Shown here: positions 32,578-52,300 of the stretch, piece after piece
Position numbering within the stretch: the stretch's first letter is position 1
Layout of the letters: each line of letters starts with the position of its first letter
Assembly (NCBI GenBank): GCA_049999805.1
Contig: JBNGIO010006379.1
Span: 997,971-1,061,970, forward strand
Source of the DNA: Folioceros fuciformis
Taxonomy: Eukaryota
Length of the DNA stretch: 64,000 nt
Reading direction: 5' to 3'
Notes under the pieces: generated by a model
What the model saw: the letters and a program-made list of their open reading frames with translations, nothing else
Databases searched by the model: none
Told to the model about the DNA's origin: nothing
Position numbers and translations under genes: made by a program

Positions 32578-33666
32578 TCAAGCACAAAGCGCATGGCAAC
32601 TAAGGATAACGTCGTCAACCGACCAGGGGGCTGAATTGTCCGCGGCCAACAACGAAGTCCTCCACCTCGTTTCCGACGCATTACAGTGGGCAATACCGAC
32701 AGTGAAATTGCCCAAAACAAGTCCCAAATAGTTTCCTAAATCAACCAGGGAGCGCAGGCTCTTGTTGAGTGCGCAGTCGTAGAGGGGCCGCCAGGAGTCG
32801 GTATCCGTTTCATATACCGAGAGGCCCGCCAGATTTTGGCCGTCAGGTACAGGCCACAAGAGCTGCTGGTCGCGGACCACGAAGGGATCGAAATGTTTCC
32901 ACTGCTCAAACAAGTTCGAGGAGACGGTGTCCCACTCCCACCGTTCAGCACAGAAGCGATGCGTTCGGACGGGCCCCGACGTTCCAGGATCGGGGACACT
33001 GTGGCAAGGAACGAAGAGATGATGGCCGAGGGCCACCGCGGGACGAGGCCTTATCGAGCCCCAAGCTTCTCTCCCCTCTGCCAACGCAGGAGCATCGCTC
33101 CATAGATCATCTCCGACGTCGTAGCATTCCATGGCCAAATGCTCCGAGACTCCACCAGATCCACAGTCTCGCTCACCTCCGAGAACGTACAGCCTATCAT
33201 TGACCACGGCTGCCATGAAGTCCGCTCTAGCATGTCGCATCGGGGCAGCGTTGCCCCACTTACCGCTGCCGGGATCGTACACCGCCACGGAGTCGAGCGG
33301 CACGCCGTCCGCGCGCCCCCCGCACACCACCAGCTTCCCCTTAACGACTTGCGCCTGCAGCTGAGCCGCCCGGGACAGAGGCGAAGGCAAAGGTGCCGCC
33401 GGCATCCACTTCCTTGCCTGCGGATCAAACGCCCGCAGCGCTATGCTGGCAGAGTAGGAATCAGGGTAGGAGACATGGTTCCTGCTCACCAGCGCGTAAA
33501 TCCAAGGCTCAGCTAGCCCCGTCTCGGCTCGAGCTCGGGAGAAGTAGGCGCTTTCCAGCGCGCTCTTCCACACCTTGCACACTGCTCGCATTTGGCCATG
33601 AAAGCGGCGTGGCACGCACAACAAGCACAGCAATGCAACGTCTTCGGGCAGGCCTGGGATCAACAT
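32578..33666 (-). CDS. F-box/kelch-repeat protein, intronless
   Basis: F-box MLIPGLPEDVALLCLLCVPR..MRAVCKVWK and kelch repeats (LVVCGG..VYDP..KW..AAPMRHARADF, LYVLGG..ECYD..W). Likely start 33666; the ORF is open upstream to 33873. Confidence 0.9.
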   Translation of the reverse strand: MLIPGLPEDVALLCLLCVPRRFHGQMRAVCKVWKSALESAYFSRARAETGLAEPWIYALVSRNHVSYPDSYSASIALRAFDPQARKWMPAAPLPSPLSRAAQLQAQVVKGKLVVCGGRADGVPLDSVAVYDPGSGKWGNAAPMRHARADFMAAVVNDRLYVLGGERDCGSGGVSEHLAMECYDVGDDLWSDAPALAEGREAWGSIRPRPAVALGHHLFVPCHSVPDPGTSGPVRTHRFCAERWEWDTVSSNLFEQWKHFDPFVVRDQQLLWPVPDGQNLAGLSVYETDTDSWRPLYDCALNKSLRSLVDLGNYLGLVLGNFTVGIAHCNASETRWRTSLLAADNSAPWSVDDVILSCHALCA

Positions 33667-33949
33667 TGCCCAGCCGGATGTAGCTACCACTCGAAGCTCA
33701 GGGCGCAGGTACTGGAAATTGGGATGGATGCCTGCCCTAGTCAAATGCGGCGCATTCTGCTTGATCTCACTGGCGCCACAACATCGCGCCGCAGAGAGAT
33801 CTTTCGGGCGACCAAATTTGTAGCCGAGAGGTAGCCGCCGTTCACGGCATTCAACATGGTCGCCATCTTCCACGTGATTTGCAGTTCAGCAGATACGTAC
33901 ATCGTTTTCTGCTTTCACCCGTGATAGACTTGACCGCAGTTTGCACTCC

Positions 33950-35612: not shown

Positions 35613-36296
35613 TCGAATCCAGAACAGAGCTTTCCACGGCTGACTGCCTCCACGCTGACAAAGGCCAGGGAACCATCCTCGATTCCAGAAAGGGCGAATG
35701 CGTCCTCCCATGCCCCATTCCATCCTCAGACGATGCGGAACATTCACCACGCAGCCATTGGTTAAACCATTAACCACATTACTAGAAGTTATATGACATT
35801 AGCTTAAATATCTAGAAAATCTTATTGCTTAGAAGTCTAAGCGTCCTAAGTATGCAAAGAGGAAAGCTGCATCTCAGAGATAAGAACATAAGAACTTAAA
35901 AATTGGACTAAGGCTGGGTAGCCAGGCACTAACCTCCCAAGACCTACTTTGAAGATACTTTAATATATTTATAAGAATGTTTAGATATTTCATAAAACTT
36001 ATTTATTTTTCATGTATATATATATGTATTTTATATCTAGAAGGTTCTCAATAAAAAGACAAGATGGATTCGAGAGAGATTTTGAATATCCGATCCCATC
36101 CCATCCGAGCATTGGATGCGAGAGGTGGAAATATGTGAACTGAAAATGGGTGGGAAGGGAAGGTGCGGGTCTGGTAAAGAAAAACAAAAATGAAAAGAAA
36201 AAAATCATGCAAGAGAGGGGTATTAAAAGATGAGGGTGATGACAATGGATGCCTGATTTTTGCATAACCCGAGAACGTACAGCAAAGTAGGCTATT

Positions 36297-37133
36297 TGAC
36301 CATGGTCAGGAGAAGTGCTGTTTGCCGCCAAGTCTGTGGAGCCAGGCAGGAGGAGTAGGCGGGAGACGAGCGCGGGCATCATCAGTATCAGAGGTTTTTA
36401 TCATCCGTGTGTTTTTGTCGTGCCGGCGGCGCTGCCTCCCTCCTTCCCTCTTTTGATCGGAGGAGCGCTGGTGCCCCTCTCAGGCAAAGGCGTGGGTGCA
36501 GCAAGAGCGAGGACGCTGGTGGCCGGCCAGGGTTTATGCCCTGATCTTGCCCGCCGTGTGTGCGCATAGGCAGAGGCGGAGGCAGAGACAGAGGCAGGGC
36601 CGAGTGGAACCGGGCCCGCCCCACACACAGGTCAGGTCAGGTCAGGTTGGGCCTAGGCCGCTGTCATCTTTGGAGCAGGGCGGTGCGCTGCGTGCGATCG
36701 CCTGCGCCACGGACGGCCCGCTCCCGCTGCGGAGCTAGGTAGTGGAAGAGGTGACGCCTGCGGCTCTGTCTGCTGTCTTGTGTGCGCGCGCCCGCCCGAT
36801 GATCTTGCTGTGCTCTTTTGCCTTGACGGAACAGCGGAACGGATAGCCGGGCCTCAATTCTCCCGCACCCCCCCTGCCCGCCGGCCCAAACCTATCCATG
36901 TCCTGTGCCTGGCGCCGGGGGGAGGGGAGGTTAGGACCATGGTGTTAGGTCATGTGTGTTTGACTGCTGGTTGACTCGTGCGCTGGTGTTGGAGTGATAT
37001 TGTAGACTAGTGTAGTGTAGGGTGCGCTGGAGAAGCTCAATGTGGTACGCGGCTTAACACCTCCGCTGGCGCCGGTTTGTGCTTGTGGCAGGCAGGCAGG
37101 CCTAGTATGGCGGGTCCTGGAAGTGGTGCGGCC
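36297..37133 (+). promoter_or_regulatory. shared 5' module, copy 1 (promoter palindrome, 5'-UTR blocks, minimal uORF, UTR intron, first 9 codons of GIP1-like gene)
   Basis: Blocks TGACCATGGTCA 36297-36308, TCGTGCCGGCGGC 36418-36430, AGGGTTTATGCCCTGATCTTGC 36529-36550, GTCATCTTT 36663-36671, CGATCGCCT 36695-36703, GGAGCTAG 36731-36738 and MAGPGSGAA 37107-37133. All recur collinearly upstream of the G3BP-like gene. Confidence 0.85.
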
Positions 37134-40100
37134 GGGGGCGCTCTCCCGGCTGTTGCCAGCGCCAGCGCCTCCAGCTCCGCGGGTATCCCCTCCAATGCTC
37201 GCAAGGTGGTGCAGCAACTGAAGGAGGTGGTGCCAGGGACCGATGATGAGATCTACGCTATGCTCAGGGACTGTAACATGGATCCAGACGAGACGGTGCA
37301 GCGGCTGCTCAACCAGGGTACGCTCGCCTCTGCTGCGGCGTTTGTCGTTGCTACTCGCTCTTTCAGATTGGGACTTTCGTTTGCGTCTTAGGAACGCGTG
37401 GCTCTCGTGCTAGCCACTCCACCCCGAGACGCAGGTCAGGTTGGGTGGGTGCTCTTGGCCCCGCTCCACGGATGTTCTGTACGCCCAACCTACCTTGAGG
37501 GTGGTGAGGCAGCAGGGGGTGGCCTGAGACATGCAGCCCTCGGAACGGGTGGGGTTGCCGTGGTTGACTCGTAGGGTGTGCCTGAGACACGCAGAGGCTG
37601 CCGTGCGCTTGGACATATCTGCATGTCTGGGATGGATGGAAGCATGGATGGATAGATATATAGCCTTGTCCTCGCTTTACCTGAGATGTCTTCAGCCCTT
37701 CCTAGTTTGTGGATCACCCCAGTCGCTTGACCTGACTTAAGCCCTTCCTAGTTTGTTGAGCACCCCAGTCGCTAGTAACGCTGGCTTGTTTGCCTGTTAG
37801 TCGCCGGGTTTTGGAGCTTAAGGTTGTCGGATTCTACGGCCTCCTGATGCATTTTAGTAGGCCGTGTAGCTCGCTGGGATGTGCGGCGTCACAGCGTTTA
37901 TCTTACGTGGTGTCCTGCCCTGTCCGCAGATCCTTTTCATGAAGTGAAACGGCGGCGAGAAAAGAAGAAAGAGGTAGCGAGAGCACCAACCAGGATTGTC
38001 ACTCAGTGTGCAGCATCTGCCATCCTGTCCGTGGCCTTGTTCTCATATCGTTCCTGCCCTTGTCACCAGCTCGGAGGAAATAAGGACGGTAGTGAAAGCA
38101 GGCAAAGGCCAAATGGTCCTTCCTCAAGGGGAGGAAGAAACGGCCCCTCAGAGCGTGGTGCTGGGAGAGGGAGTGGTGCTCCCCGCTACTCCAGCGGTGA
38201 GTAATCTTTTCTTCTTCGTGGGTTTTACACAGGGATAAGCAGGCGGTGGTAGTTGTGATTGATGACTCCCCTGGGTTGTAGATTACAATGGTGGTGGACG
38301 AGGGAAGCAGTTTGTCCCTCGAGAGAATGGTATTCACTCCAACAACCGTGGTTCCAGTGGCATGGCGTCGGCTACAGCTTCATCTGGCTCAGGTTTTAGC
38401 CTGTCGAAAGGCTTCCCATCCGGAGCAAGGTGCGATTTTCTCATTTTTTTATGTCACTGTTTTTTATGTGTCTGTAAGTTCCATTATGTCTGTGTGGCGT
38501 TTTCAGACTAATGGTGAATTTGAACTTGGTGCAGCAATCCGGTATCTGCACCTGCTCCCATTCCACCAACTGCTGTTGCTGCAGGACCTGCTTCCATGCC
38601 TTCGCCTGCCGCAGTGCCTGCACCAGCATCTGTTTCAGCCCCCAGTCTATCCAATGGAAGTTCTGTCTATGCTCGCACAGCGCTTGTAGGTCAAAGTTGG
38701 GTGGCCACTTCCGGACATGCAACTATGGCAGACATTGTCAAGTCCAACGGTGCACCCCCACCAACTCCTCCACTTCCTGCTGCCCTCCAACCATCTCTAC
38801 CGTCTGTTGCACCTCAGCAATATGTTACATCTCCTCCTGCTGGATCTGTGTCATCTGGCGTGTACTCCTCTTCCACTGATCCTGTGCTTCATCCATCTCT
38901 GGATCCCCGTGCTGGTACACCTGGTACAATCAAACGTGAGCTTGGGTCAGTTGGGAATCAGCGCCCAATAGGAGATCGGCCGTCTGTTTCGGTGATTGGT
39001 GATGCGACTTCTATCTCTCCCCCCTCTCATCAGTCTCACATGATCTCTTTAACTGCTACCACTTCCGGCAGTGCTCCCCTTGAATCTGAGGTGCAGGTCT
39101 CTGGGCCGAGTAGCCCGGCTGGAACTGCTGATATCTCAGAAAGGGTGGGCAATCAATCAGCCCTGTCAGATGTTGGAAATGGCGGGGTAGTATCACGCCA
39201 GTCGCCAGGAGCAGTTCAGAGCAATGTGTCTGCAACAACTGTGCCCCGAACAGTGTTGGGTGGGGGCCAGTTCAATGGCAGGTCAGGGTATCAAGCCCAA
39301 CAACCCGTCGGAACTGTAAAATGTAAGCCATTGTGCAGGTCGAGGCTACCTTTTTCCTTTGTTCTTTTTCAGTGAGTTTCAACCTGTCATCGATCAAGCT
39401 GATCGCCTGGTGTTATCCTGCAGCCAGCGGATCTGGGTTGGAATGGAAGCCTAAACCATCAATTTCAAGCTCTTTGGGGATAGGCAGTACCATCGGAACC
39501 TCAAGCTCCTCAGTGGCTGCCCCTGAGCCTACAAGAGCTCCACCTGCACCAGCTCCTGCTCAGGATGCCAGTGTAACAGCTTCAGCGACTACTAAGCTCC
39601 AGGGCCTGAGTATCCAGGATGAGCAACAAGTGATTATACCGAATCATCTTCAAGTGCCAGAGGCAGACCAAGTTACAGGTTTGAGCTTTGGGAGTTTTGA
39701 CGCAGGTTATGGAACATCATATTCCTCAAACTTTGTTCCTGAAGAATCGATCAACTCGACCTTGCCTATTTCCGAGGCAGCACCACTCGTTGAGCCTCCT
39801 GTGGAACAGCCTAGCACAAGGTTTGTCAATCTTGTGTTTTGCGTATTTTTGAAAGCCATCCTTCTGAGACTTCTCCGAACTGACCTTTGGTGTTACTTTC
39901 CTTCTGTCGTTATATCAGTGTTTCGAGTCCCTCGCCAGTATCTCTCAGTCAAAGCTTTGTCCATCAGCCAGTGGCGTCCCCACCAGAAAGCTTGGTTGCC
40001 AGTAATGACGTGACTGCAAGCCCTCCTGTTCCAGCTGTGCAGCAACTGGAGTTGTCGAAGCCGGATCCTGTTGTCCAACAGCACTATCCGTACCACGGGT

Positions 40101-41446
40101 TACCACCTGTAGCTAGTTATCATAGTTTTGGGATGCTGCCACAGATACCATCACCACAGTACTCGTATGAACCAGATCCAGCGCCGGATGTCTCTAGGTT
40201 GCCAAATATAATGGTGAGATCTCTGCCGTGTCGTAGCCTTTGTATGTGTGATGTAGACTTGGCTATTGATGAGATCTTATCACCAATGACGTACTTGTCG
40301 TATGTAGCAGGCATATGCAGATCCCACGCCAAACTATTACACACCGGCTTTCAGACCTGGGGCAGATCCGGACCGGTATCCTGCGTTTTTGGCTAGCAAT
40401 GCAACCAGCAAGTTCAATGGCAATATTGGGCTCCAGAGTCCTCAGACATCACAGGAGGTATGTTTCATGCGGTGCTCAGCTTCCATGTTCCTTCTGTGTC
40501 GTTGGGTACATCTCTCACTGTGCCTCCGTGATGTCTAGACTGGAAGTTCTTTGCCATCAACGGGTGCATCGGTGCAGACGTCTCAGACAGGAAATGCACA
40601 ACCGGCCCCATCCATTCCTCAGCAAGGAGTGCCCATGCATGCTTATACAGCTCAGGCAGGAGTACCTGTGGGACACTTCGCAAGCATTTTTGGGTATCAG
40701 CTTGTGCCTTCCAACTACGCCTACATGCCCCATCCTCCATATCAGCATAGTTACACTGGAAATAGTGGATTTCCTCAGCCTCCTGCCGGTACCAGTTACC
40801 CTCAGGCTGCTGGTAGTAGCTACCCACCTGCTGGAGCTGGGGGTGTGAAGTATGGCTTGCCGCAGTACAAACCTGGCAGCAGTTCAGGCAATGTGCCGCA
40901 CTCAGGAGCTGGTTCAACCTACGGTGGGTACACTCCTACTCCTGCTGGCTATACTTCGAATCCGACTGTGACTGCTGGTAGTGCTAGTGGATACGAGGAT
41001 GTCCCTCAACCTTACAAGGATAACATCTACATTCCTCAGCAACCGGTAAGCCCTTTCGTGCATTGTTGTTATAGTTGATCGGCAGCCCCTCAGGCCGTTG
41101 GTAATTTTGTGTCTGGGATGTTCAGGCTGACGGGAGCACTGTATGGATCCAAACGCAACTGTCACGCGACATGGGTGGTGCTGGGTTGCAGACAAGTTCT
41201 TACTACAACATGCCCAATCAAGTTCAACACGCAGGTTACTCCCACACGCAGCAACCTACACATGCGCATGGTCACCCAGGCGCGGGTTATACCAATTTGT
41301 ATCATCCTACACAGTCTGGACCTGCCCCTAGTGGTCACCAGTTACTTCAACAGCCCCAGGCCCTTGGAGCTACAGGTAGTGGTGGCCAGGCGGGCGCCTA
41401 CCAGCAACCACAACGCACTCAACAGACATGGGCCGCTAACTACTGA
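37107..41446 (+). CDS. GIP1: GBF-interacting protein 1 / DUF1296 family (UBAP2/Lingerer-like), multi-exon
   Basis: N-terminal UBA-like IPSNARKVVQQLKEVV..DDEIYAMLRDCNMDPDETVQRLLNQDPFHEVKRRREKKKE, RG-rich segment, TMADIVK, EWKPKP, VIIPNHLQVPE..LSFGSF, and a long P/Q/Y/G-rich prion-like C-terminus ending WAANY*. Confidence 0.9.
37694..37773. repeat. 34-bp direct repeat in the first coding intron of the GIP1-like gene
   Basis: agcccttcctagtttgt(g/t)ga(t/g)caccccagtcgct at 37694-37727 and 37740-37773. Confidence 0.85.
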
Positions 41447-42465
41447 CTTGTTTGCTGGAGGGTTAAGGGATACGTAGTCACTGACTTGACTCTATTGATG
41501 AGCCAGCACTGGGACGTCGGGAGTTCTTGGGATCTTGTCCTTGACAGGCCCAGGAGCCATGAGAGATGGTGCCACCTAGGAGGGCTTGCTTCTTTTATTG
41601 TCTAGGCAGAGGAGTGGGAGAGGTCGTAGCTCAGATTGTAGCAGGGGCCTTCAATAGGTTGTCCTGAGAGTGTACATAACAAGGTTGAAGCCGATGAACA
41701 TCGATAGGCGTACTTCCGATGGAAGACGGTAGAATGTGGCAGACTACCCGATGATTTGTTTTAGTCCCAGGTTTGGTCTTGTTTTGTGTCTCATTCTGAG
41801 ACCTTGCATGACTCCGGCGTATCACAGCCCACTCATCCCATGCTTTGAAGGTGAGCACCGTTTCCTGGTGAAGATGAGGTACCGGATGTTGTACGAAGTG
41901 GTTGAGACATTGTTGCTGAAATCGTTAATGCTCAAGGCGGATATGTGAAATGGGACCTGGTGTCGCCTCTATTACCCTTAACCCGTCCAGGATTCGTGCG
42001 AGGGGCTTTGTCGAGGCGTACAGTCCGTCAACATTTTCAAATAAATCAACTCTTGTGGATCGAGGGTTCGGTTAACCGGTTGTGCAACGTTCGTGCGAAA
42101 CTTTTCATCACGAGTGATATCGATCGTTCCACGGTCAAACATGCCCGTAGGACTGCTCATCTTCCCTTTCCCTATTTCCCTCATGATAGCTCGAGTTTGT
42201 TGGACTTTTGTGTATGCATCATCGAGACACTTCGAGGCTGAAGCAAGCAAAGAGGCAATTTGGCCGAAACTTGGCTGCTTTACTCGCACGTCCCTATGAT
42301 TTGCTGACCGGGCCGCGATTTGACAGTGGCCCACCCAACGTCGTGGTTTGAATTTGAGAATCACATCGTCTCGTCTCCATTCCCGCCAGGAATTCCTTGA
42401 CCTGCAATGCTGGTGGACGATGGCGGCAGGTACGAGCAGGTAGAGTCCCTCCCCGCGACACCCTC

Positions 42466-43854
42466 ATGGGAAGAAGGGAGGGTGAGCTCCAGGTGACGGT
42501 GGTGGATGAATTCGAAGACTGGCTCCACGATGCCTCCTTCTTCGAGCGGCTTCCGCAGGAGGAACCGGCGAGGAAGGCAAGGGGGCTGATCAGGATGGAC
42601 GATCTGCTCAGGGANNNNNNNNNNNNNNNNNNNNNNNNNNNNNNNNNNNNNNNNNNNNNNNNNNNNNNNNNNNNNNNNNNNNNNNNNNNNNNNNNNNNNN
42701 NNNNNNNNNNNNNNTGCGAGAAGAGACTCCTGTGCCAGGAGGCGCCTGCGAAGAAGGCTTCCAAATGGGGAAGGAGACTCTTCGGGCCTTCCGCCCAAGT
42801 GCCCGCGCCACCTGTCGGGAGCGGGGTGCTAGAAATGGCGCTGCAGGTCATGCCGGACAGAGAGCCCTTGGAGCTCCTGTCTTCGGGCGACCTGCTTGTG
42901 GTAGCCCGTCTCAGCGGCACGATTGACCACCTCTTCTTCCAATGGGTGTTCCATCACATGGCCTTCTCATCAGATTCCGCAGCGGAGGAATCGGCCTCCT
43001 CGATGCTATGTCAAATTGCAGACCCGGCTGAACGATTCTCACCGAAGTGGGGCGGGTGGATGCCAGACGGCGGCTTGTTCGTTTCCGCTTTCCGTTGCCT
43101 AGGGTACGAGGAGGATGCGCCGCCTCCAGGACTGGTCGGCTCGGCAGATGTGCAAGGCGGGTGTCCCAGGAACGTGCGCTCTTTACTCCGGGTTCTGGCT
43201 GCGTTTTCCTCGCCTCCAGCTTTTGCTACTTTTTCGGTCACCGACGCGGAGAGGCTGGTGCTGCTTCTTCTTGGCTTTGTCGGGGATCGTGATCTCCAGC
43301 ACTTTCTGCCTCTCGTGTCTGTGTGCCTGGAGCAACTGCTGGACTGGTTTTCAGTGGATGACTGGCCCCATGTTTTGGAACGAATTGCTTCTCGCCTGGC
43401 CGAAGGAGGCGCCAATAATCTCGTGTTTGTGAAGGGCTATCTGACGTTCCATTGCCGCGTGAGGCAAGTCCAGAGCCAGACGGTCCTGTGTCATCTTCAA
43501 ACGTTCACCAAGACAGGACAAATCCGGTCTGCTGCAGATGTGGTGTCGCTTTTCAAGAATGTGAGTTTGCGAAAGGGAACAGCGTTTCTCGAGCTGTACA
43601 ATCAACTCGTGCTGGCTGATTTGTGGTTGTGGCAAAACCTGCCTACGTGCAGTAAGGATGCCACGGCTATGCAGGCATGGATCTCTTTCTTGCGGAGATG
43701 TTCCACCCAGATTTTCTGCGGAGATACCAGGCTTCATGCTACTAAGCTCAGGGATTGGGCTTCGTTTCTGTGCCATAAGTATACTACTCCAGCGGCCCAT
43801 GAGACGGAACCCGAACAAGGTTGTGAGGTACAGGACACAGGCTGGATAATTTAG
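42466..43854 (+). CDS. intronless helical protein, tentatively NSE6/SLF2 (CANIN/FAM178)-like SMC5/6 accessory subunit; interrupted by a 100-N gap (42615-42714)
   Basis: Long open frame with LIRMDDLL, KWGRRLFG, WVFHHMAFSS, WMPD..F..LGY, CPRNVR, DRDL and WISFLRRCSTQI..DTR..ATKLRD.ASFL. E2F-like ATTCCCGC at 42379-42386. Family assignment is from recalled motif pattern only, and the frame across the gap is unverifiable. Confidence 0.55.
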   Translation: MGRREGELQVTVVDEFEDWLHDASFFERLPQEEPARKARGLIRMDDLLRXXXXXXXXXXXXXXXXXXXXXXXXXXXXXXXXXXCEKRLLCQEAPAKKASKWGRRLFGPSAQVPAPPVGSGVLEMALQVMPDREPLELLSSGDLLVVARLSGTIDHLFFQWVFHHMAFSSDSAAEESASSMLCQIADPAERFSPKWGGWMPDGGLFVSAFRCLGYEEDAPPPGLVGSADVQGGCPRNVRSLLRVLAAFSSPPAFATFSVTDAERLVLLLLGFVGDRDLQHFLPLVSVCLEQLLDWFSVDDWPHVLERIASRLAEGGANNLVFVKGYLTFHCRVRQVQSQTVLCHLQTFTKTGQIRSAADVVSLFKNVSLRKGTAFLELYNQLVLADLWLWQNLPTCSKDATAMQAWISFLRRCSTQIFCGDTRLHATKLRDWASFLCHKYTTPAAHETEPEQGCEVQDTGWII

Positions 43855-44374
43855 GAAAACCGTTGGGCAAGGTTCTCAAGAGTCTCAAGCTCAGCGAAGG
43901 TGCTTGTTTCACATTTGCTTGAATGTACCGATGTATTGAGACACTTCACTCCTAGGTGAAGAGTGCATTAGGTTTACCATGGACTCTTTAGGGTGTCTTG
44001 AATGGGGTCGAGGCTGAGGAAATGCTGCTTACTATTACCCAAGAGGTTGTACAAGAAAAATTACATTTGAGGGTGGGAAGAAATAAAGATTCACCTTAAT
44101 CAACATGGCTTCAAGATTATCATGAAATGCAGCTATGTTGAAGAGGTAGAGAACAAATACACAAAGCACACCAAAGATATCTATTGAAACTCTAGATTAC
44201 AAAAGTTATAAGTTTACTCTTTGGATCCAATTCAATTTCCAAAGTGCGTTGGTCTTAGAGCGTTCTCCGCATGATGCGGAGTGCGCCTGAATATAAAGTT
44301 ATTACTAAGAGATGAACCCTACACTACACTATTAGTACATGAATGAAAGAAGGTATGCTGATCTACAGCACACA

Positions 44375-44537
44375 TAGATCCAAACTTCTTCATTTTGACA
44401 CTTTCAAACCACTTTGTTCTCATTGTGCCAGTAAATCCAAACTTCTTCATTTTGACACTTTTAAAACACTTTGTTCTCATTGTGCTGGTAGATCCAAACT
44501 TCTTCATTTAACACTTTCAAAACACTTTGTTCTCATT
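44375..44537. repeat. three tandem copies of a 57-bp unit
   Basis: tagatccaaacttcttcattttgacactttcaaa.cactttgttctcattgtg units start at 44375, 44432 and 44489. Confidence 0.9.
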
Positions 44538-44999
44538 TGTTGCACGAGGTGATATGCTTTTTTGGCTTCTACATGGACAAGGTCTTTTTTACACAGGTAT
44601 GTCTTCTTGTGTTTGAAATCTCATGATAAAATGTCGAAAATTAGCTAGGATTATGATTCCTTGAAAAGTGGAAAACAGACTTCATGCATTCCTTGAAAAA
44701 TGAGAAATTACTTTATGGAATTCAAACGTTTGGTCCTAAACCCTAAGAAATTTAAAAGAAAATTTTAAATTTTAAATAGAATGATAGATGAAAGAATACT
44801 TATCATGTGTAAGGTTTTCTACACGATCTACTTAAGTACGGTGTATTAACTCAAACAAATCACATTGTTGGTAAGGTTTTGAATGCATGTAGCTATCACA
44901 ACATAACGTGTATGGAGCTTGGGATTAATAAGCTCTTATTCAACATGGGTCTTTGTTTTCCATCCATCGTCCTTATCGTCGTTCCTTGCATGTTTCTTC

Positions 45000-45305
45000 T
45001 CTTATTCTCTTATGTTTGCTTCAGGGCCATTGAAACATTTCTTCCCTTGTCCTCTTATGTTTCCTTAGGGCCATTAAAACTTGTCCTCTTATGTTTGCCG
45101 TTTCTTCCTTTGTCCTCTTATGTTTGCCGTTTCTTCCTTTGTCCTCTTATGTTTCCTTAGAGCGATTAAAACTTGTCCTCTTATGTTGCCTTGGGGCGAT
45201 TAAAACTTGTCCTCTTATGTTTGCTTAGGGCCTCCAAAATGATTATTCTCTTGTCTCTTATGTTTGCTTCTCTTATCCTCTTCTTTTTGCTTCTCTTGTC
45301 CTCTT
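45000..45305. repeat. degenerate minisatellite with tgtcctcttatgttt core (about 29-35 bp units)
   Basis: Core recurs about 8 times, alternating with ccgtttcttcctt and ccttagggccattaaaact spacers. Confidence 0.8.
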
Positions 45306-45780
45306 CTAAACAAGTTGGCTTCGGGGTCATCGAACATTTCTTCTCTTGCTGTGATATGTTTCCTTGAGCGCCATCGAAATGGAAGTGGTTCAATTTCCAT
45401 CCTCCTTGTCCTACTCCATTGCTATTGGAGTTCTTGGAAGAGAAGTGAAAGTTCTTTCCCTTCCTATGAAGGTTCTCCTCGAAAGGGGAGTGGAAGCCGT
45501 CTCCTCCAAAGGGAAGTGGAAGTCCTTTTCCTGTTGTAGCCCTCTAGTCACATTGGAGGCCATAGACGGAGAGTTGGGCCCTCGGTGTCCTCCACCTACA
45601 CCAACACGAGCAACAATAAATAACTAAGAGAAAAAAGAAATGAAAATAGTATTTTTCCCTCCCATACACAGAGCGCTAGACAAAAGTTACCCTAGGTTTC
45701 AGGAAGCCAATTCCAGAGAACCTCTCGCCTTAAGCCAAACCGTCCGAGTGCTCGGCGGTACGGCTAATTGGTTCAACGGA

Positions 45781-46110
45781 TTCACCAGGGCTCGCCCTTC
45801 CAGCTTTTCATGGTAAGCGAGTAATGCTTTCACCAGGACTCGCTCTTCCACCTCTACACTGTAAGTGACTAACGATTTCGCCAGCCAGGTCCAGCTGGCC
45901 CTTCCAGCTGCACGCGGTAAGTGAAGAACGCTTTCACCAGGGCCTAACCCTCAAGGTCTTCACAGTTAGCGAGTAACTCTCTGGCCAGAGCTGACCCGTC
46001 CCTCTCTTCACGGTAGGTGAGTACCTACCTTCCACCAGAACCGGTCCTTTCAACTCTTCACGATAGATATGTATCTTTCACCAGGGCTAGGCCCTTCTGG
46101 ATCTTCACGG
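45781..46110. repeat. seven degenerate ~48-bp tandem units downstream of the G3BP-like gene
   Basis: TTCACCAG-like anchors at 45781, 45829, 45877, 45933, 45981, 46031 and 46077. Confidence 0.85.
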
Positions 46111-46527
46111 GAAGGAATTAAAAAAAATGTGCTTCAGAGAGTTTGCACCCTCCACCAAAGGGCCACCACAATAAACAGTCCAGGGACTGGGCTAATCCTT
46201 CCATGGATTACATAATTTCGAAAATCCTACACTCTGCAGACAAACAAAAATGCAATGGAGAACAGAGACCCCATGTAATCCCTCTTCCAACAATAACCTA
46301 AGCGCCTCAACACAGTTACCAGTCGTTACTTTATCTAACGGCCCCCACCCGAAGGAGCAGTTCCTAGCTTGAAGAAGCAAATGGGCACAGGGGAAAAACC
46401 ATGATGACTTGCATGACGACCAGAATGCATACGCTATGCCAGCACATGAGCGGTACATACTTACGAACTCTCGTGTGTGGTAAGCACAGCGATCAGCACT
46501 CCAGAAGGCAACACTAAAAAAGACAAG

Positions 46528-48871
46528 TCAGGCGATGGGAACTGGAGGTGGCGCATCATGCGCGAGGGGCAGATTATTACGGGACATCTGATTGCTTGGT
46601 CCTCTTCGCACTGGCTTCGGTCCCATGTTCCCTGCTTGGCCCTCGCTCTTGCGGTAGTTATCGCCTGTAGCATTTGCACCGAAGTTGTTGCCGAGGTTGG
46701 GGCCCGACCCTCCACTATAACCGCCACGCCCCTGACCACCGCGGCCTCGATAATAAGTCTCACCGCGATCCTGCTGGCCACCACGTCCTCCTCCCATACC
46801 TCGACCACCACCAACTCCCAGACCGCGACCACGCATGCTGTTCTCAGGGCGGTATGGCCGATCTCCCCTTCCAGCTGGCGGACGACCCCTACCGGCACTA
46901 CCACCTGCAACAACAAAACTGAAGTCAAGATGTATTCTTCAATCAAATCTTAAGTCAGCACAGCACATGATCGTCATCGAACACTACCTCGCAGCATGAG
47001 AGGCCTTTTCTCCTCGATGTACACGTGACGGCCGCCCAGAGACGTGGATCCAGCCTGCATTCACGGGATAAGATACAAATGAGATGCAACAGGAGAAGAG
47101 GCAATACGATAAAGGAAGTGAAGATGGCCACCCAGCAAGTACCTCTATTGCACGATGTGCAGCCGACGCATCGTCAAACTCTATGAACGCGTAACACACA
47201 CCCTGTTGCTGTTGAGAGAAACGGAGGAAAGCATCAAGGTGAGACTCAAAACTCGTTAAGACCAATTAGTTACGCAACCTGTAACTAGACAGCAGATCTT
47301 AAACCTTTTGGCTCTTCACATTCACACCACCAGGTTTTACTGGTCCAAATCTGGAGAACTCCTCCTCTAGCTGTTGCGCTGTCACATGCAAAGGCAAATT
47401 CTTGACATAAACTGATCTTCCGTCAGCTGCAAGAAAAGTAAAGCAATGAGTCCACAGCATTTTCAAAACCGGATGGGAACTAAATTAACCAGAGCATTGA
47501 AGAACCGTACCCTCATTTTCAACAATGATAGTCTCTTCCGATGCATCCTGCGACTGTGCAGGAGGAGAACGTGGAGCAGCAACTGGCTGCACATTTACAG
47601 CAGCAGGTCGATCAGGTGCAGGTGAGACCTTGGGAGCTGGATTATAGTGTGGAGCTGGCAACTGCGCTCCTCCGCCCTCTTTCATCAACCGAAGCTACCA
47701 TACGACAAGCAAGACAGCATGAGAAATGCGGATCATGAACCAAAAAGAGTCCTACCTTCATGTCACTCTAGAAGATGTGTTGTACCATGGATACTTACAA
47801 TAGATGCATAAGACTTCTTCGGAATTTCTCCGGGAGTAGATTCCTCGGTAGATGGCTGTACAGAGGGAGGCTCAATGATGGGCGATATTGCCTCGTCCAT
47901 CACAGGTACTGTAGCTTCACCGCGAACAAGGACTGCGTCTTCAGAAATTCCGTCATCTTCGGGTTCAGATAACTCAACACGGTCAGGAAGCTCGTATCCT
48001 TCCTCCACCACAGCTTCATCATCCGAGGCACGTGGAGACGATAACTCCCTCACTTCATGCTCAGCAGGCAGTGCAGGTTCCAGAACTGAAGAACAACAAC
48101 CAACACAAAGCGTCACAACAGGATAACGTGAAGGAACAAAGGAAACTTTTCTCTGTAAAACCCTAACTCCTGCTCGAGAGGAAGTACTCATTCTTACCCG
48201 CCTCTTGCGGAGTAAGCACTTGGGGGGGCTCTGGGATGCCATTTGATAATGGAGCAGCAGGTGGTCCCTGCTGGGGAGCTTCATCCAGATACCGAAACAT
48301 ATCATTCAGTACAAAGTAGCCCTTCTCTTGTGGAGCCAAGAAGAAGGTCTGGACAAAATTCCGCTTCCCAGAGGTCTTGCTAGACAGAGATCCCGTCACC
48401 ATAACAATAACTCCACCTTGATGGGAGTCCTGGGAGTCCACAGTCTTAATCTCTGCTTTAGATTCCGTGTAGTCAAGCAGCATAACTTTATTGTGAATCT
48501 CCTGCGAAAACATGTCCACGACTAAGACACAACCGACTCAAACACGAAAAGACCTTCACAGCACACCGCGCAAAGACGGCAGCTTACCGGCTGGCTCTCC
48601 ACCGTGTCAACGGCTCCACCGGCCCCAGCTTCAGCACGCGTTAGCTTACTGGCATTGGTGTAGAAACGATGCACAACTTGGGGGGACTGATGCAGCACAT
48701 GATAATACTGATTGACGAATGCATTCCCCACCTACAATCGGCATATTGCACTCACATTAGTACTGGTCCAGCTGCCCAATCACATCGAAGGACGAGCCGA
48801 GGGGGGAAGAAAAAAAATACCACGCTTGCAGAAGCCGTGATAGAAGCCGCTCCGCTTCCAGGCCCCGCCAT
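46528..48871 (-). CDS. G3BP: G3BP-like protein (NTF2 domain, acidic region, RRM, RGG tail), multi-exon
   Basis: MAGPGSGAASITASASV|VGNAFVNQYYHVLHQSP..HRFY, VDSQDSHQGGVIVMVTG..FVQTFFLAPQEKGYFVLNDMFRY, PKKSYASI, RRM (SVYVKNLP..EEFSRFGPVKPGGV..CYAFIEF) and RGG-rich C-terminus. Stop at 46528-46530. Confidence 0.95.
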
Positions 48872-49589
48872 GGACCTGTCAAACAACCAAACAGCGTTAC
48901 GACCAGAGGAAGGAAAAAAAAAAAATCCCTCACGCACACCTATATCTCCAGAAGTACTAATTAACGGCCGCTACAGCAGCCACGCCGCAAGAAGCAGCGG
49001 GCCAAAACCTAACAAGAGTATCCCCGCAGCAAGACGATGAGCCTGGAATCAGAAGCCAAGGAGACATGCCAACCGCTCCCTCGCATAACCCGCATCCCAT
49101 GGACCAGCACCAGGCGTGCATCCACCCCCGGCAAGCTCAGGAGGAGTAGGAAAAGCAGTAAGGGCTGAAGCGCCGGCACCGCACCTCTAGCTCCACCGGG
49201 GAGCCTGGCTTCCCTACGCCTCGACCCCCGGCCCGGCAGAAGGCGATCGGACAGCGCCTGCCCGAAAGATGACCGCACCCTAGCGGGCTACCGCAATCGG
49301 AGCCAATCTGGCTACCGCAAGGGGCGCAAGATCAGGGCATAAACCCTTGCTCCGCTCCTCTGTTCCCCAGCCAGGACCTGCAGTGCCGGCGCGATCGGCA
49401 CGGGGCAACGAGGCGCAAGGGCGAGGGCAATGGCGGTGAAGGGAGGGTGCCGCCGGCACGAAGAAGTGAAGGACGAAATACCTCCGGCTAACACTGCTCG
49501 CGCACACCTACGCGCTCGGCTTGTCCTCCTCGTACCACGACTAGCTGCCGGAGAGCAAGGGCAAACTCACCCACTTCTGACCAGGGTCA
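48845..49589 (-). promoter_or_regulatory. shared 5' module, copy 2 (upstream of and including the first 9 codons of the G3BP-like gene)
   Basis: Minus strand: TGACCCTGGTCA 49589-49578, TCGTGCCGGCGGC 49461-49449, AGGGTTTATGCCCTGATCTTGC 49347-49326, GTCATCTTT 49273-49265, CGATCGCCT 49249-49241, GGAGCTAG 49194-49187 and MAGPGSGAA 48871-48845. Confidence 0.85.
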
Positions 49590-50221
49590 TGTGCCGCACT
49601 TCGAGCCCAAGTACCTCTCGCCCTTTTTCCAAATGCTAGCTCCGAAGAGAGAGAGATTTTTTTCGCATCGAAACACCCTGTTGCAAATATTTTCCAGGCA
49701 CGGCGGGCCCTGCGTATGTAGGCTGTCCAAGCATGGTTGCTTGTTTGCGACAACTTGTAGAGAAATATCAAAATTTTTATTTGGGTGGGTTTATCCTCCA
49801 AGTAATGTTATTTATTTATTTATTTAGAACATAAGATAGAACATATTATTTAATTATTTAAACATAAGATAGAAAATTAATTTATCTCTATATAAAAAAG
49901 ATGAATATTTTTAAAATATAAGATAGGAAATTCATGTATCCCCACATAAAAGGTAAATCATGATTGGGACCTTAGTTAGGGCTAATCCTTGAAGCCTAAT
50001 GTCTACCAATAGCACCTAAAATATAATATAACGATATAAAGGAAGAAAAGGTCTACCTATGGTTGGGATGGAAGATTAGACATGCAAGTGCTCAGAATCA
50101 GGAAGTGCTCAGAATCAAGAAATGCTAAACCCTAAACCTTATATGGGAACTCATGTTTCTTATATAAATAAATAGAATATATGTATATTTCCTCACTTAT
50201 CTTAACAACTTAATCATGACT

Positions 50222-50456
50222 TACCCCTAATCATCAACAACAATAAACTTCTTACTTCTAAATCATCAAACTCAATAAACTACATCTTCAATATCTATCA
50301 CCTTTCGAATTGTTAACATACCCCTAATCATCAACAACAATAAACTTCTTACTTCTAAATCATCAAACTCAATAAGCTACATCTTCAATATCTATCTAAA
50401 TCATCAAACTCAATAAGCTACATCTTCAATATCTATCACCTTTCGAATTGTTAACA
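50222..50456. repeat. 97-bp tandem duplication with a nested ~39-bp duplication, AT-rich
   Basis: tacccctaatcatcaacaacaataaac... starts at 50222 and 50319. Confidence 0.85.
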
Positions 50457-51099: not shown

Positions 51100-52300
51100 C
51101 CTCATCACCTCGACACTATTAGACTGCTCAGACCATTCACCTACTAGGTCCATTTAGATTTAAACCTCATATTCACCCGAAGACCATGGGAGCTCACCTT
51201 CCCCAAGGGTAGGCGTGATTCCATTGTTCTTCATTCATAGGAAGCCCGGCAACTTCCACTCTCTTCACTTGAATTGTTTTCAATGGAATTGCCTTAGACT
51301 TTCTGCTGCAATCGATAAGTGCTCCCAAATGCGCCAGAGAAGAGCCTTAGATGAGGCCGGCACCGTTCCTCCATAGACCACGGAGGACTAGTTGACCCAA
51401 AGATGGAAAAGACAAGAAGACCACAGTAACCCCCACCATTGCGACTGAAGTAGAGCTTTGCCCGAGGTTGCATCCAACCCAAAAAGGGCACTTTGTTCAG
51501 TGATCCTGAGGTTGGTGCCGGGAAGAATTCTTTGCAACCACCTGCGCATCTCACTCCATATCTCCTGGGCAAAGCTGTTGTAGAAGAACAAGTGCTGACT
51601 TTTGTTTGGGGCACCATAGGTGCATAGTCGACACTGGTCTTCTCCCGTTGCAACCAACAACCCATCTCATCTATCCGCATTAGGCAAACAAGCTTGAAAA
51701 AGGCACCAAACTGTCATCCTAACCTTGGGAGGAATTCCATTTGACTTCCAAAGTAGCTTGATAGCTTCCCTTTGTCGCCGCACAGATAGCTGTTTGTCGC
51801 CGCACAGATAGCTGTAGTCGGGAGCCATTGGTTGCCGTTGTCTGATTTCTGCACTCACACCAGCCAGAGGAATATGTCGGCTGTTGGGAAGTTGAAGAAC
51901 GACCGAAGGCCGTCCGCCTTACACCCTGGACGCTTGGGCCATTTGTAGAGATCTGGCCTTAATGCCAACACCCAATTCTCCGCAAGCCGGAACCAACATC
52001 GGACAGCTGGTTTGTCCGAGGTTGGTTGTCCACTAGGGCCTTCGAGTTGAGTGAACCACTACCCTGCACGAGCAAACTTAGAGAGGGCCGTGCTGGCTCG
52101 GAGTTCCCCTCTTCGGACATCCCATCGTTCCTGCCCTGACTTTCCAAAAGCCCCTCCGGCGACATGACCTTGAATGTCCGCAAGTCCTCTTTGTTAGCCG
52201 TACCTGAAAGCCAGACAGCCCTATCCAATTCTAGGTCGTCCTCCTCAAAATCATCTAGATACCGCTTAGGAGCCTTAATTAGCGCATCTTGGCTCCACCG
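51100..52300 (-). mobile_element. decayed L1-like LINE 3' fragment (zf-RVT domain)
   Basis: LWKSNGIPPKVRMTVWCLFQACLPNADR*..CRLC..SQHLFF..FAQEIWSE matches the plant LINE zinc-binding C-terminus. In-frame stops and a 22-bp tandem duplication at 51771-51815. Boundaries approximate. Confidence 0.8.

Follow-up and report, generated by a model that had tools for sequence, protein, structure and literature searches.

The locus described here, from what seems to be a land plant of bryophyte grade, raises the question of how two genes with unrelated bodies came to begin with the same 5' end, and what has kept parts of that end alike since. The window, by which we mean the whole 64,000-nucleotide stretch of DNA that was analysed, holds both genes in convergent orientation, now tail to tail and 12.8 kb apart. 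A sequence-only reading had named them a GIP1/UBAP2-like gene and a G3BP-like gene.

The first gene (36482..42059, + strand, the extent of a 3882-nt spliced contig of RNA run X3) is assigned from its domain and family matches to the GIP1_N/DUF1296 family, which includes Arabidopsis GIP1 and FUST1. Its predicted CDS at 37107-41446 amounts, by arithmetic on the contig, to 2985 nt and 994 aa, with a GIP1_N domain at the N-terminus and a long low-complexity tail rich in Tyr. GIP1_N (PF06972, which we take to be the former DUF1296) matches at 37107-37316 (+) with an E-value of 1.6e-19 and 70.3 bits, the cut-off being 26.4. Three body exons match full-length family members, and the Tyr-rich C-terminal region is kept among the land-plant members. 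The three-exon bit-score total is 447 for the Riccia sorocarpa member, itself a protein of 994 aa, 374 for the best lycophyte (Diphasiastrum) and 254-340 for ferns and Psilotum. Membership in UBAP2/UBAP2L found no support, and neither did the "UBAP2-like" label: a Pfam scan of seven exon translations (E 0.01 to 1) returned GIP1_N only. A PDB search with the GIP1_N-bearing exon gave no relative with an E-value below 0.27, and the literature yielded no paper linking UBAP2L with Arabidopsis GIP1. GIP1 is among further members of DUF1296 that have been described as nuclear factors, a point that weighs against the reading favoured below.

The second gene (46120..49212, - strand, the extent of a 2042-nt spliced contig) is predicted from its domains to encode an NTF2-RRM-RGG protein of the G3BP-like type. 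Its CDS at 48871-46528 gives 533 aa, with an NTF2 match at 48199-48501 (-; E 5.4e-24), an RRM_1 match at 47305-47424 (-; E 2.7e-6) and an RGG-rich C-terminus that is visible in the exon-joined translation. Among 1044 candidate NTF2 homologues, 969 reached E 0.001 or better, the closest being bryophyte G3BP-like proteins at 70-74%.

Run X3 comes from another sample and study than the DNA runs X1 and X2, from which the window may derive. In the X3 contigs 15 listed GT..AG introns are skipped, and exon 1 is connected to the ATG exon both in the GIP1-family gene (joint 36748/37090, cut +2; 341 nt skipped) and in the G3BP-like gene (joint 48873/49183, cut +2; 309 nt skipped). Neither joint is carried by any X1 DNA contig. 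The architecture common to both genes is a non-coding exon 1, a leader intron just before the ATG and then the peptide MAGPGSGAA, so that the 5'UTR intron supposed by the sequence-only reading is confirmed in each. In the GIP1-family gene, exon 1 occupies 36482..36750 (+), where 36482 is a minimum 5' extent because it is the end of the RNA contig; the intron (36751..37091, +, 341 nt, GT..AG) ends 15 nt before the ATG, and the start codon with the shared coding start lies at 37107..37163 (+), codons 1-9 being 37107-37133. In the G3BP-like gene, the intron (48876..49184, -, 309 nt, GT..AG) ends 4 nt before the ATG, and the leader-peptide exon (48821..48875, -) comprises 4 nt of UTR followed by 17 codons, beginning with the ATG at 48871. 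The contig of the G3BP-like gene reaches only 49212, but comparison with the GIP1-family copy predicts that its exon 1 extends to approximately 49395, and transcription of blocks C-E (described below) on this side is likewise a prediction.

Seven blocks, A-G, had been reported upstream of the two genes, and all seven were recovered in identical order, with positions given here for the GIP1-family (+) and G3BP-like (-) sides, respectively. Block A (36297-36309/49589-49577; 12/13 identical) is a near-palindrome, TGACCATGGTCA(G) on the GIP1-family side. In both copies it is followed by AGAAGTG and GTTTGCC, for a full span of 36297-36326/49589-49560, and on the GIP1-family side it lies ~185-156 nt upstream of the transcript contig's 5' end. 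Block B (TCGTGCCGGCGGC, 36418-36430/49461-49449; 13/13) lies 64-52 nt 5' of that end and is followed on the same side by a CT-rich tract. Block C is a 22-mer without a mismatch (36529-36550/49347-49326; 22/22), is identical at 29/33 positions over the extended span 36526-36558/49350-49318, and is the top inverted repeat within 34-52 kb of the window. Block D follows at 36653-36679/49283-49257 (22/27), block E, CGATCGCCT, at 36695-36703/49249-49241, block F, GGAGCTAG, at 36731-36738/49194-49187, and block G at 37107-37133/48871-48845 (23/27 nt and 9/9 residues, MAGPGSGAA). Blocks C, D, E and F are contained in exon 1 of the GIP1-family gene. Measured start to start, the spacing is 121/128 nt for A-B and 111/114 nt for B-C, where the sequence-only reading gave ~110/117 and 99/102 nt; C-D is 124/64 nt, with an additional microsatellite-like stretch on the GIP1-family side. 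Block F was said to sit beside the intron donor, which is true of the G3BP-like gene, where exon 1 ends 2 nt past GGAGCTAG, but not of the GIP1-family gene, where it ends 12 nt past (36750).

The likeness stood out clearly against shuffled sequence. A chained, gapped local alignment of 36250-37140 (+) with the reverse complement of 48840-49650 scored 202.75 (z = 13), far above 200 dinucleotide shuffles (mean 75.0, sd 9.8, maximum 108.75). With 286 real segments of the window as controls, it was over double the highest score among them (97). The homology is confined to a 5' module of ~0.8 kb (36291-37163/49594-48821). Within it, the upstream region (z 8.4 and 9.3 in two alignments), exon 1 (z 9.7) and the coding start (z 7.2) each gave a score that none of 300 shuffles equalled, whereas the leader introns showed no similarity between copies (z 0.5; 92/300 shuffles scoring as high). 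Downstream of the module the DNA of the two genes showed no similarity (z 2.0), and comparison of all ORFs of 20000-42600 with 42715-64000 by tblastn found no match between gene bodies; its sole match was a retroelement-like relic outside both genes. The coding regions are, as had been proposed, otherwise non-homologous, and the similarity of the two 5' ends is homologous and colinear.

In the nine shared codons, 4/27 nt differ and all four differences are synonymous, an outcome with a chance of 0.0087 for random single changes; about half of the synonymous sites have changed. After these codons the GIP1-family side has a 6-nt indel and then weaker homology up to ~37163. The remaining 24 nt of the G3BP-like leader exon match the GIP1-family gene at 16/24 positions, a level attained by 3/1928 null windows (its own site included) and by 0/72 coding controls. 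Each leader holds exactly one upstream ATG, and in both it falls within the identical 22-mer, where it opens a two-codon mini-uORF, AUG-CCC-UGA (ATG-CCC-TGA at 36536-36544 on the + strand and 49340 to 49332 on the - strand). Its start context is weak (U at -3), and we regard it as a candidate regulatory uORF kept between two paralogous leaders, those two alone being compared. The leaders fold no more stably than shuffles (z -0.3 to -0.8) and match no Rfam family, giving no sign of a structured RNA element.

We think it probable that these observations reflect an old, DNA-level copy of the ~0.8-kb module whose functional parts were then kept by selection. A segment of that size would have been copied, inverted, between two non-homologous genes, likely by local partial duplication or ectopic recombination. 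It would have comprised upstream promoter elements, the core promoter, non-coding exon 1, the leader intron, the ATG and the first 9-17 codons; such a segment spans promoter through first codons, so that one gene would have gained the whole 5' control module of the other as an in-frame chimera. As expected of a chimeric gene formed by partial duplication, significant homology is limited to one end and the remainder is unrelated. The event would be old, since the leader introns and inter-block spacers no longer align and about half of the synonymous sites in the shared codons have changed. Selection would have kept the distal near-palindrome of block A, the GC box of block B with the CT-rich tract near the transcription start, the block C leader element with its two-codon reading frame, leader blocks D, E and F, the position of the intron just before the AUG, and the peptide MAGPGSGAA. 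The sequence-only reading had seen a footprint of selection here. Blocks are conserved in a saturated background, spacers have diverged, and the shared codons differ only synonymously. This fits selection, with constraint read from a single pairwise comparison because each block is represented by only two sequences. As a consequence, the G3BP-like and FUST1/GIP1-family genes may be transcribed and translated under the same signals.

The colinear homology of the module fits the earlier proposal that one gene captured the 5' end of its neighbor through an old inverted duplication. On direction we lean weakly towards transfer from the G3BP-like to the GIP1-family gene, and the signals conflict. 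A profile built from 72 G3BP-family leaders gave 4.6 and 3.8 bits, scores matched or exceeded in 109/1000 and 192/1000 shuffles. A motif defined post hoc was found in 12/72 G3BP leaders and in 0/164 GIP1-family N-termini, and it is present in the GIP1-family leader of the window. That the homology stops at the donor site of the G3BP-like gene is compatible with either direction.

Other histories could produce two similar 5' ends. The module might be one of a larger family, either a mobile element that carries a promoter or a control cassette of many genes, with no direct exchange between these neighbors. A decayed retroelement piece does lie upstream of the G3BP-side module at a distance of 1.8 kb (a zf-RVT match of E 0.0012, which falls short of the Pfam cut-off), and a similar one at 25.3 kb, but the modules are without bounding terminal inverted repeats, an intron and an in-frame coding start would be unusual cargo for a small element, and the 64-kb window holds no copy of the module besides the partner. 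Only 10 of 1,277,711 X1 DNA contigs match the 14-kb stretch with a likeness of at least 85%, and among the 8 matches listed the two short extra pieces (36063-36091 and 36564-36596) are on the GIP1 side and off the blocks; these counts weigh only weakly against a family because contigs show presence, not absence. On balance we consider this unlikely. Recent or repeated gene conversion between old neutral copies could have left the blocks as patches, in place of purifying selection, and the inverted orientation and 12.8-kb distance would permit intrachromosomal exchange; the perfect 22-mer of block C amid an otherwise saturated background is what such exchange might leave. It would, however, demand many very short tracts to give eight separate colinear patches of 8-33 nt, it does not predict synonymous-only differences in shared codons, and blocks D and G reach an identity of 81-85%, short of perfect, which together make it more improbable still.

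Independent gain of similar motifs, or chance, draws on the GC-richness of both 5' regions and on the tendency of both protein families to begin with Met-Ala or Met-Ser and small residues. We give it very little credence, as the 200 shuffles and 286 real segments score only about half of the observed value or less, and block order, intron position and codon-level identity are all common to both genes. Least credible of all is an assembly artefact in which a single 5' end was misjoined to two gene bodies. A 100-N gap does separate the genes (42615-42714), but X3 contigs splice each leader onto its own gene body, X1 DNA contigs are unbroken over 36040-42614 and 45125-50000, and the two modules differ at most positions and hence are not one sequence placed twice.

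Returning to the copied and constrained module, the sequence evidence suggests an old local duplication that would have put a pair of cooperating proteins under shared regulation. Where eukaryotic genes that work together are regulated together, each is usually supposed to have acquired its transcription-factor sites independently; at this locus an entire 5' control module appears to have passed by copying from one gene to an unrelated one, with parts of it then held by selection. If the module imposes common control, it supplies a few experimentally accessible candidate cis elements for the regulation of stress-granule genes in an early-diverging land plant, and the locus would illustrate plainly how capture of a promoter and leader can rewire genes in nature. 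Why two proteins unrelated in every other respect should both retain MAGPGSGAA is a further question, open to direct test. A bolder and rather doubtful extension is that the cassette, complete with promoter elements, an AUG-CCC-UGA switch in the leader, an intron there and an N-terminal tag of nine residues, serves stress-granule genes as a portable control unit, which this lineage would have copied onto two genes or more, others perhaps lying elsewhere in the genome. A FUST1-type heat sensor and G3BP, as scaffold proteins needed at the same time, would then be coordinated in their production, their translation and perhaps their N-terminal processing. Were it true, this would be a eukaryotic regulon built by cassette duplication and not by single-motif gain.

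The sequence-only reading had cast the two products as partner stress-granule proteins, and this part stands for the families, the UBAP2 relationship being unsupported by the Pfam result. Arabidopsis FUST1 (AT3G07660) carries a UBA domain at its N-terminus and a prion-like domain rich in Tyr; it interacts with G3BPs, condenses earlier than they do and draws them into heat stress granules (PMC12205081), so that the Arabidopsis counterparts act in sequence during assembly; table rows elsewhere give AT3G07660 as a DUF1296 protein (PMC10264680, PMC12680889). The likeness to our locus is at family level, with an N-terminal UBA-like GIP1_N/DUF1296 domain plus Tyr-rich tail in one protein and NTF2-RRM in the other. 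Shared cis elements and gene neighborhood, described for the present locus, do not figure in the passages of PMC12205081 on FUST1 and G3BP. Chimeric genes that arose by partial duplication or illegitimate recombination and recruited the promoter, 5'UTR and first codons of another gene are described among tandem duplications of Drosophila yakuba (PMC5460883), with further chimeras in rice (PMC3673630) and on the Drosophila X (PMC1463047). As in those partial-duplication chimeras, homology here is limited to the 5' end, the fusion is in frame, the remainder is unrelated and the donor lies near the recipient. Unlike in those cases, the event here would be old, both copies carry a footprint of short blocks in promoter and leader, the donor gene seems intact, and the two families cooperate in one cellular structure.

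Duplicated plant promoters retain conserved non-coding sequences as paralogous footprints. Our blocks resemble these in being short, ordered islands of identity at similar spacing in an unalignable background; in the cases known the flanking genes are paralogous, whereas here the 5' module alone is. For the mini-uORF, the nearest parallel is the very short regulatory AUG-stop (AUGUAA) of Arabidopsis NIP5;1 (PMC11915504). Both are minimal upstream reading frames within a strictly conserved leader element, but ours has two codons and a weak context, and its conservation is seen between two paralogous leaders only. Finally, families of duplicated or transposon-borne regulatory elements are reported to build co-regulatory networks (bioRxiv 10.64898/2025.12.03.692127). 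Compared with the families treated there, no mobile element is evident at our locus, and a complete module with transcription start, leader, intron and first codons would have been copied once between two genes; as with them, the copying of cis elements could have wired separate genes to common control.

The GIP1-family gene (+ strand, 36482-42059) and the G3BP-like gene (- strand, 46120-49212) have in common homologous promoter-proximal blocks, a leader exon with a mini upstream frame, a leader intron in the same place and an N-terminal nonapeptide, the extent of the G3BP-side leader exon being putative. The + strand gene encodes a GIP1_N domain (PF06972, E 1.6e-19; a family formerly named DUF1296), and its best full-length match is a Riccia sorocarpa protein, likewise of 994 residues. 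The - strand gene encodes an NTF2 domain (E 5.4e-24), an RRM_1 domain (E 2.7e-6) and an RGG-rich tail, in agreement with the G3BP-like label proposed in the sequence-only reading, and its nearest G3BP-like relatives are bryophyte proteins of Sphagnum, Riccia and Marchantia (70-74% over the exon used). The source is accordingly a probable land plant of bryophyte grade that has no near relative among the collected proteins. The label 'UBAP2-like', which the same reading had attached to the GIP1-family gene, was not borne out: no UBAP2 family was found in a Pfam scan of seven exon translations of this gene, no PDB relative of the exon with the domain scored better than E 0.27, and no literature joining GIP1, UBAP2L and Arabidopsis was found. 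Database queries were single exons rather than whole spliced proteins (6 matches for the GIP1_N exon, 2 for the Tyr-rich exon), which reduced search sensitivity.

Transcript structure was taken from contigs of X3, which is recorded only as a guessed RNA run; its sample and study are not those of the DNA runs X1 and X2, from which the window may derive. Among those listed, X3 contigs skip 15 introns with GT..AG ends, and these joints are absent from all contigs of X1. The GIP1-family gene is covered by a 3882-nt contig from 36482 to 42059, in which exon 1 ends at 36750, a 341-nt leader intron follows (36751-37091), and exon 2 begins at 37092, ahead of the ATG at 37107; by contig arithmetic, with two internal introns lacking a unique placement, the CDS comes to 2985 nt (994 residues). 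For the G3BP-like gene, a 2042-nt contig runs from 46120 across a 309-nt intron (48876-49184) into exon 1, of which this main contig covers only 30 nt, so that transcription of blocks C-E is putative on this side. The acceptor precedes the ATG at 48871 by 4 nt, and the exon-joined frame is 533 residues. Both gene models therefore have a non-coding exon 1, a similar-sized leader intron just before the ATG and identical first nine residues, and the UTR intron that had been putative from sequence alone is real in both genes, being skipped in the X3 contigs. Contigs of X5 and X6, two other organisms of the same study as X3, matched only short exon pieces at <90% likeness and gave no 5′-end information. 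A 46-nt tandem duplication (37682-37773, 87% identical) also lies within intron 2 (612 nt) of the GIP1-family gene.

All seven blocks described earlier are present at both 5′ ends, each located by exact search after both regions had been read; positions are given for the GIP1 side (+) and then the G3BP side (-). Block A, TGACC[A/C]TGGTCAG (36297-36309 / 49589-49577), is identical at 12/13 positions, and AGAAGTG and GTTTGCC come after it in either copy. Block B, TCGTGCCGGCGGC (36418-36430 / 49461-49449), is identical throughout (13/13). Block C is an identical 22-mer (36529-36550 / 49347-49326) within a longer match of 29/33 (36526-36558 / 49350-49318), and a repeat scan returned it as the best inverted repeat of 34-52 kb. 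Block D (36653-36679 / 49283-49257) agrees at 22/27 positions; it is followed by block E, CGATCGCCT, at 36695 / 49249, and block F, GGAGCTAG, at 36731 / 49194. The claim that block F adjoins the intron donor holds only in part: the donor of the GIP1-family gene lies 12 nt beyond it. Block G is the coding start itself (37107-37133 / 48871-48845), with 23/27 nucleotides and 9/9 residues identical. The spacing between blocks C and D differs by 60 nt because the GIP1-side leader exon carries a microsatellite-like stretch at 36564-36650, (CAGAGG)n followed by (GGTCA)n, that is missing on the G3BP side. Loose ends of X3 and X1 contigs from elsewhere fall in this stretch.

Gapped local alignment of the two modules, with islands allowed to chain, gave a score of 202.75, against a mean of 75.0 (sd 9.8, maximum 108.75) for 200 dinucleotide-preserving shuffles and a maximum of 97 for 286 real 811-nt window segments on both strands, so the similarity withstands comparison with shuffled sequence. 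The module parts were then aligned one by one with 300 shuffles each. Similarity was strong in the upstream region (z 8.4), exon 1 (z 9.7) and the first coding stretch (z 7.2), with 0/300 shuffles as good in every case, and the leader introns showed none (z 0.5, 92/300). Farther upstream the score was marginal (z 2.8, 2/300) and the match was AT-rich low complexity; farther downstream, z was 2.0 (12/300). From these scores, the homologous module spans approximately 36291-37163 / 49594-48821. Past a 6-nt indel, 16 of the 24 positions that remain in the G3BP leader exon agree with the GIP1-family gene, a level reached in 3/1928 null windows (one of which is the sequence's own site) and in 0/72 coding controls.

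The nine shared codons differ at four positions, all synonymous, for which the chance under random single changes is 0.306^4 = 0.0087; by a rough count (4 changes over ~7 synonymous sites), synonymous divergence is near 1. The shared nine-residue start, MAGPGSGAA, was found in 0/301 database proteins examined. Saturated neutral parts, short islands kept in order and a peptide kept at the protein level together mark an old duplication after which purifying selection acted on both copies, as judged from these two copies only. The footprint pattern recognized in the sequence-only reading is thus upheld, with islands in order, neutral parts saturated and codon changes synonymous only.

A feature that had escaped that reading is a mini upstream frame. 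Each leader (the G3BP-side one being putative) has a single upstream ATG, located within the identical 22-mer, which opens the frame AUG-CCC-UGA (36536-36544 / 49340-49332) in a weak context with U at -3. In the minimum-energy fold of both copies this ATG lies in a small hairpin, in which there is no covariation to count because the sequence is identical in both copies; the leader folds did not exceed shuffles in stability (z -0.8 and -0.3), and no Rfam family matched 36000-50000 at E 1 or better. In a metagenome scan, the block C 21-mer had an exact match at two loci of one PP2C-like coding gene (L001 376-396 and L002 597-617), on one 1.07-Mb contig and one short one. The match is 29/31 with flanks, and its opposite strand forms part of the phosphatase motif region. 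These loci were rejected as relatives of the module, since they are at about chance expectation, by a rough estimate of collection size, and have no other likeness to it.

Weak evidence argues against a high-copy mobile element: no further copy of either module occurs within the window, no terminal repeats bound the modules, and only 10 of 1,277,711 X1 contigs match the 14-kb stretch with a likeness of at least 85%. Among the 8 X1 matches listed, the only extra GIP1-side pieces were 36063-36091 and 36564-36596, neither of which lies on a block. The modules might instead be part of a larger inverted duplication that included flanking genes. The sole protein-level likeness between the window halves is 25293-25565 (+) versus 51295-51549 (-), at 35.6% over 87 residues; this pair adjoins a zf-RVT match too weak to pass the cut-off (E 0.0012) and is therefore read as a retroelement relic rather than a larger duplication. 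Upstream of the GIP1-family gene lie a kinesin motor gene (27455-32305, +; Kinesin E 1.4e-25 on one exon) and an intronless F-box/Kelch gene (32581-33885, -; 435-residue frame), and the G3BP side has a counterpart of neither. An assembly artefact is excluded because X3 contigs show each module spliced to the gene body that belongs to it, and because most positions differ between the copies.

The decayed retroelement piece 51295-51918 (-) is 1.8 kb upstream of the G3BP-side module, and the related piece 25293-25565 (+) is 11 kb upstream of the GIP1-side module; relative to each other they are oriented as the modules are, yet they are probably independent insertions. An 81-nt AT-rich repeat in three overlapping copies (50219-50437, 98% between two) is also found upstream of the G3BP-side module, where the sequence is AT-rich. 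Between the two genes lies a third, unannotated one (42358-44103, +) that spans an N gap (42615-42714) and is represented by a 1779-nt X3 contig with a long open frame on both gap sides. By depth bins, this contig appears also to cover ~42369-42614, in which case the gap would be only ~140 nt. The middle gene had no Pfam match, and an ESM Atlas feature search returned plant clusters with 15-38% of members carrying CANIN (score 0.95), which serves as a lead only. Minisatellite arrays at 44375-44545 (three 57-nt units) and 44993-45379 (several 34-58-nt CT-rich units) separate the middle gene from the 3′ end of the G3BP-like gene, and X1 contigs break there. The two families are not adjacent in the named plant homologues, which paralogues reduce to a hint: in Riccia sorocarpa their locus tags share one 49-Mb record but are separated by ~1,540, and in Diphasiastrum and Adiantum they are far apart or on different chromosomes.

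As to the direction of transfer, we lean slightly towards the G3BP-like gene as donor and the GIP1-family gene as recipient. The motif [LIV]P[AST][ATVS]A[SH], which lies close to where G3BP leaders of bryophytes and ferns end, occurs at residues 13-18 of the window GIP1-family protein, and it is present in 12/72 distinct G3BP leaders versus 0/164 distinct GIP1-family N-termini, evidence that is weak because the motif was defined post hoc. The leader before the domain is also longer in this GIP1-family protein (26 residues) than in the relatives examined among bryophytes, lycophytes and ferns (13-22). Pointing the other way, the end of homology coincides with the leader-exon donor site in the G3BP-like gene but falls mid-exon in the GIP1-family gene, and the intron directly before the NTF2 start seems ancestral; the Sphagnum-like genomic gene calls P0007 and P0008 part from the Sphagnum protein P0009 exactly at this intron. 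A profile of 72 G3BP-family leaders gave no significant score and did not separate the two directions (4.6 and 3.8 bits, with 109/1000 and 192/1000 shuffles as good).

Arabidopsis FUST1 (AT3G07660) is described as having a UBA domain at its N-terminus together with a prion-like domain rich in Tyr, interacting with G3BPs and condensing ahead of them, and being needed for timely assembly of heat stress granules (PMC12205081). In two other reports AT3G07660 is tabulated as a DUF1296 protein (PMC10264680, PMC12680889), and plant G3BP-like proteins are likewise given as stress-granule components (PMC8230867, PMC7838295). The earlier proposal that the two genes encode partner proteins gains ground through the Arabidopsis FUST1-G3BP pair (PMC12205081) and loses its UBAP2 route. 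The window GIP1-family gene may be the FUST1 orthologue or belong to another DUF1296 subfamily. No literature pairing DUF1296 with 'stress granules' was found, 'GBF-interacting protein 1' and 'stress granule' co-occurred only in an unrelated table, and no description of shared cis elements between the GIP1 and G3BP families was found.

Blocks A and B could bind proteins in a promoter that has a CT-rich tract and no TATA box, and block C would act in the mRNA, where either its two-codon frame or binding to it would be responsible. Retention of the leader intron may have been for its position and not its sequence, which would fit intron-mediated enhancement, and the shared nonapeptide would serve a separate function. 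Overall, transcription and translation are hypothesized to be under common control for these two proteins, whose Arabidopsis counterparts co-assemble stress granules.

Paralogous promoter footprints are well known. Chimeric genes that arise by partial duplication and take a neighbor's 5′ end are also well known (PMC5460883, PMC3673630, PMC1463047), and minimal regulatory upstream frames have precedents such as the AUG-stop of NIP5;1 (PMC11915504). What is unusual is the combination of a complete control module captured long ago, the retention of its parts in both copies, and its occurrence in two non-homologous genes of cooperating families.
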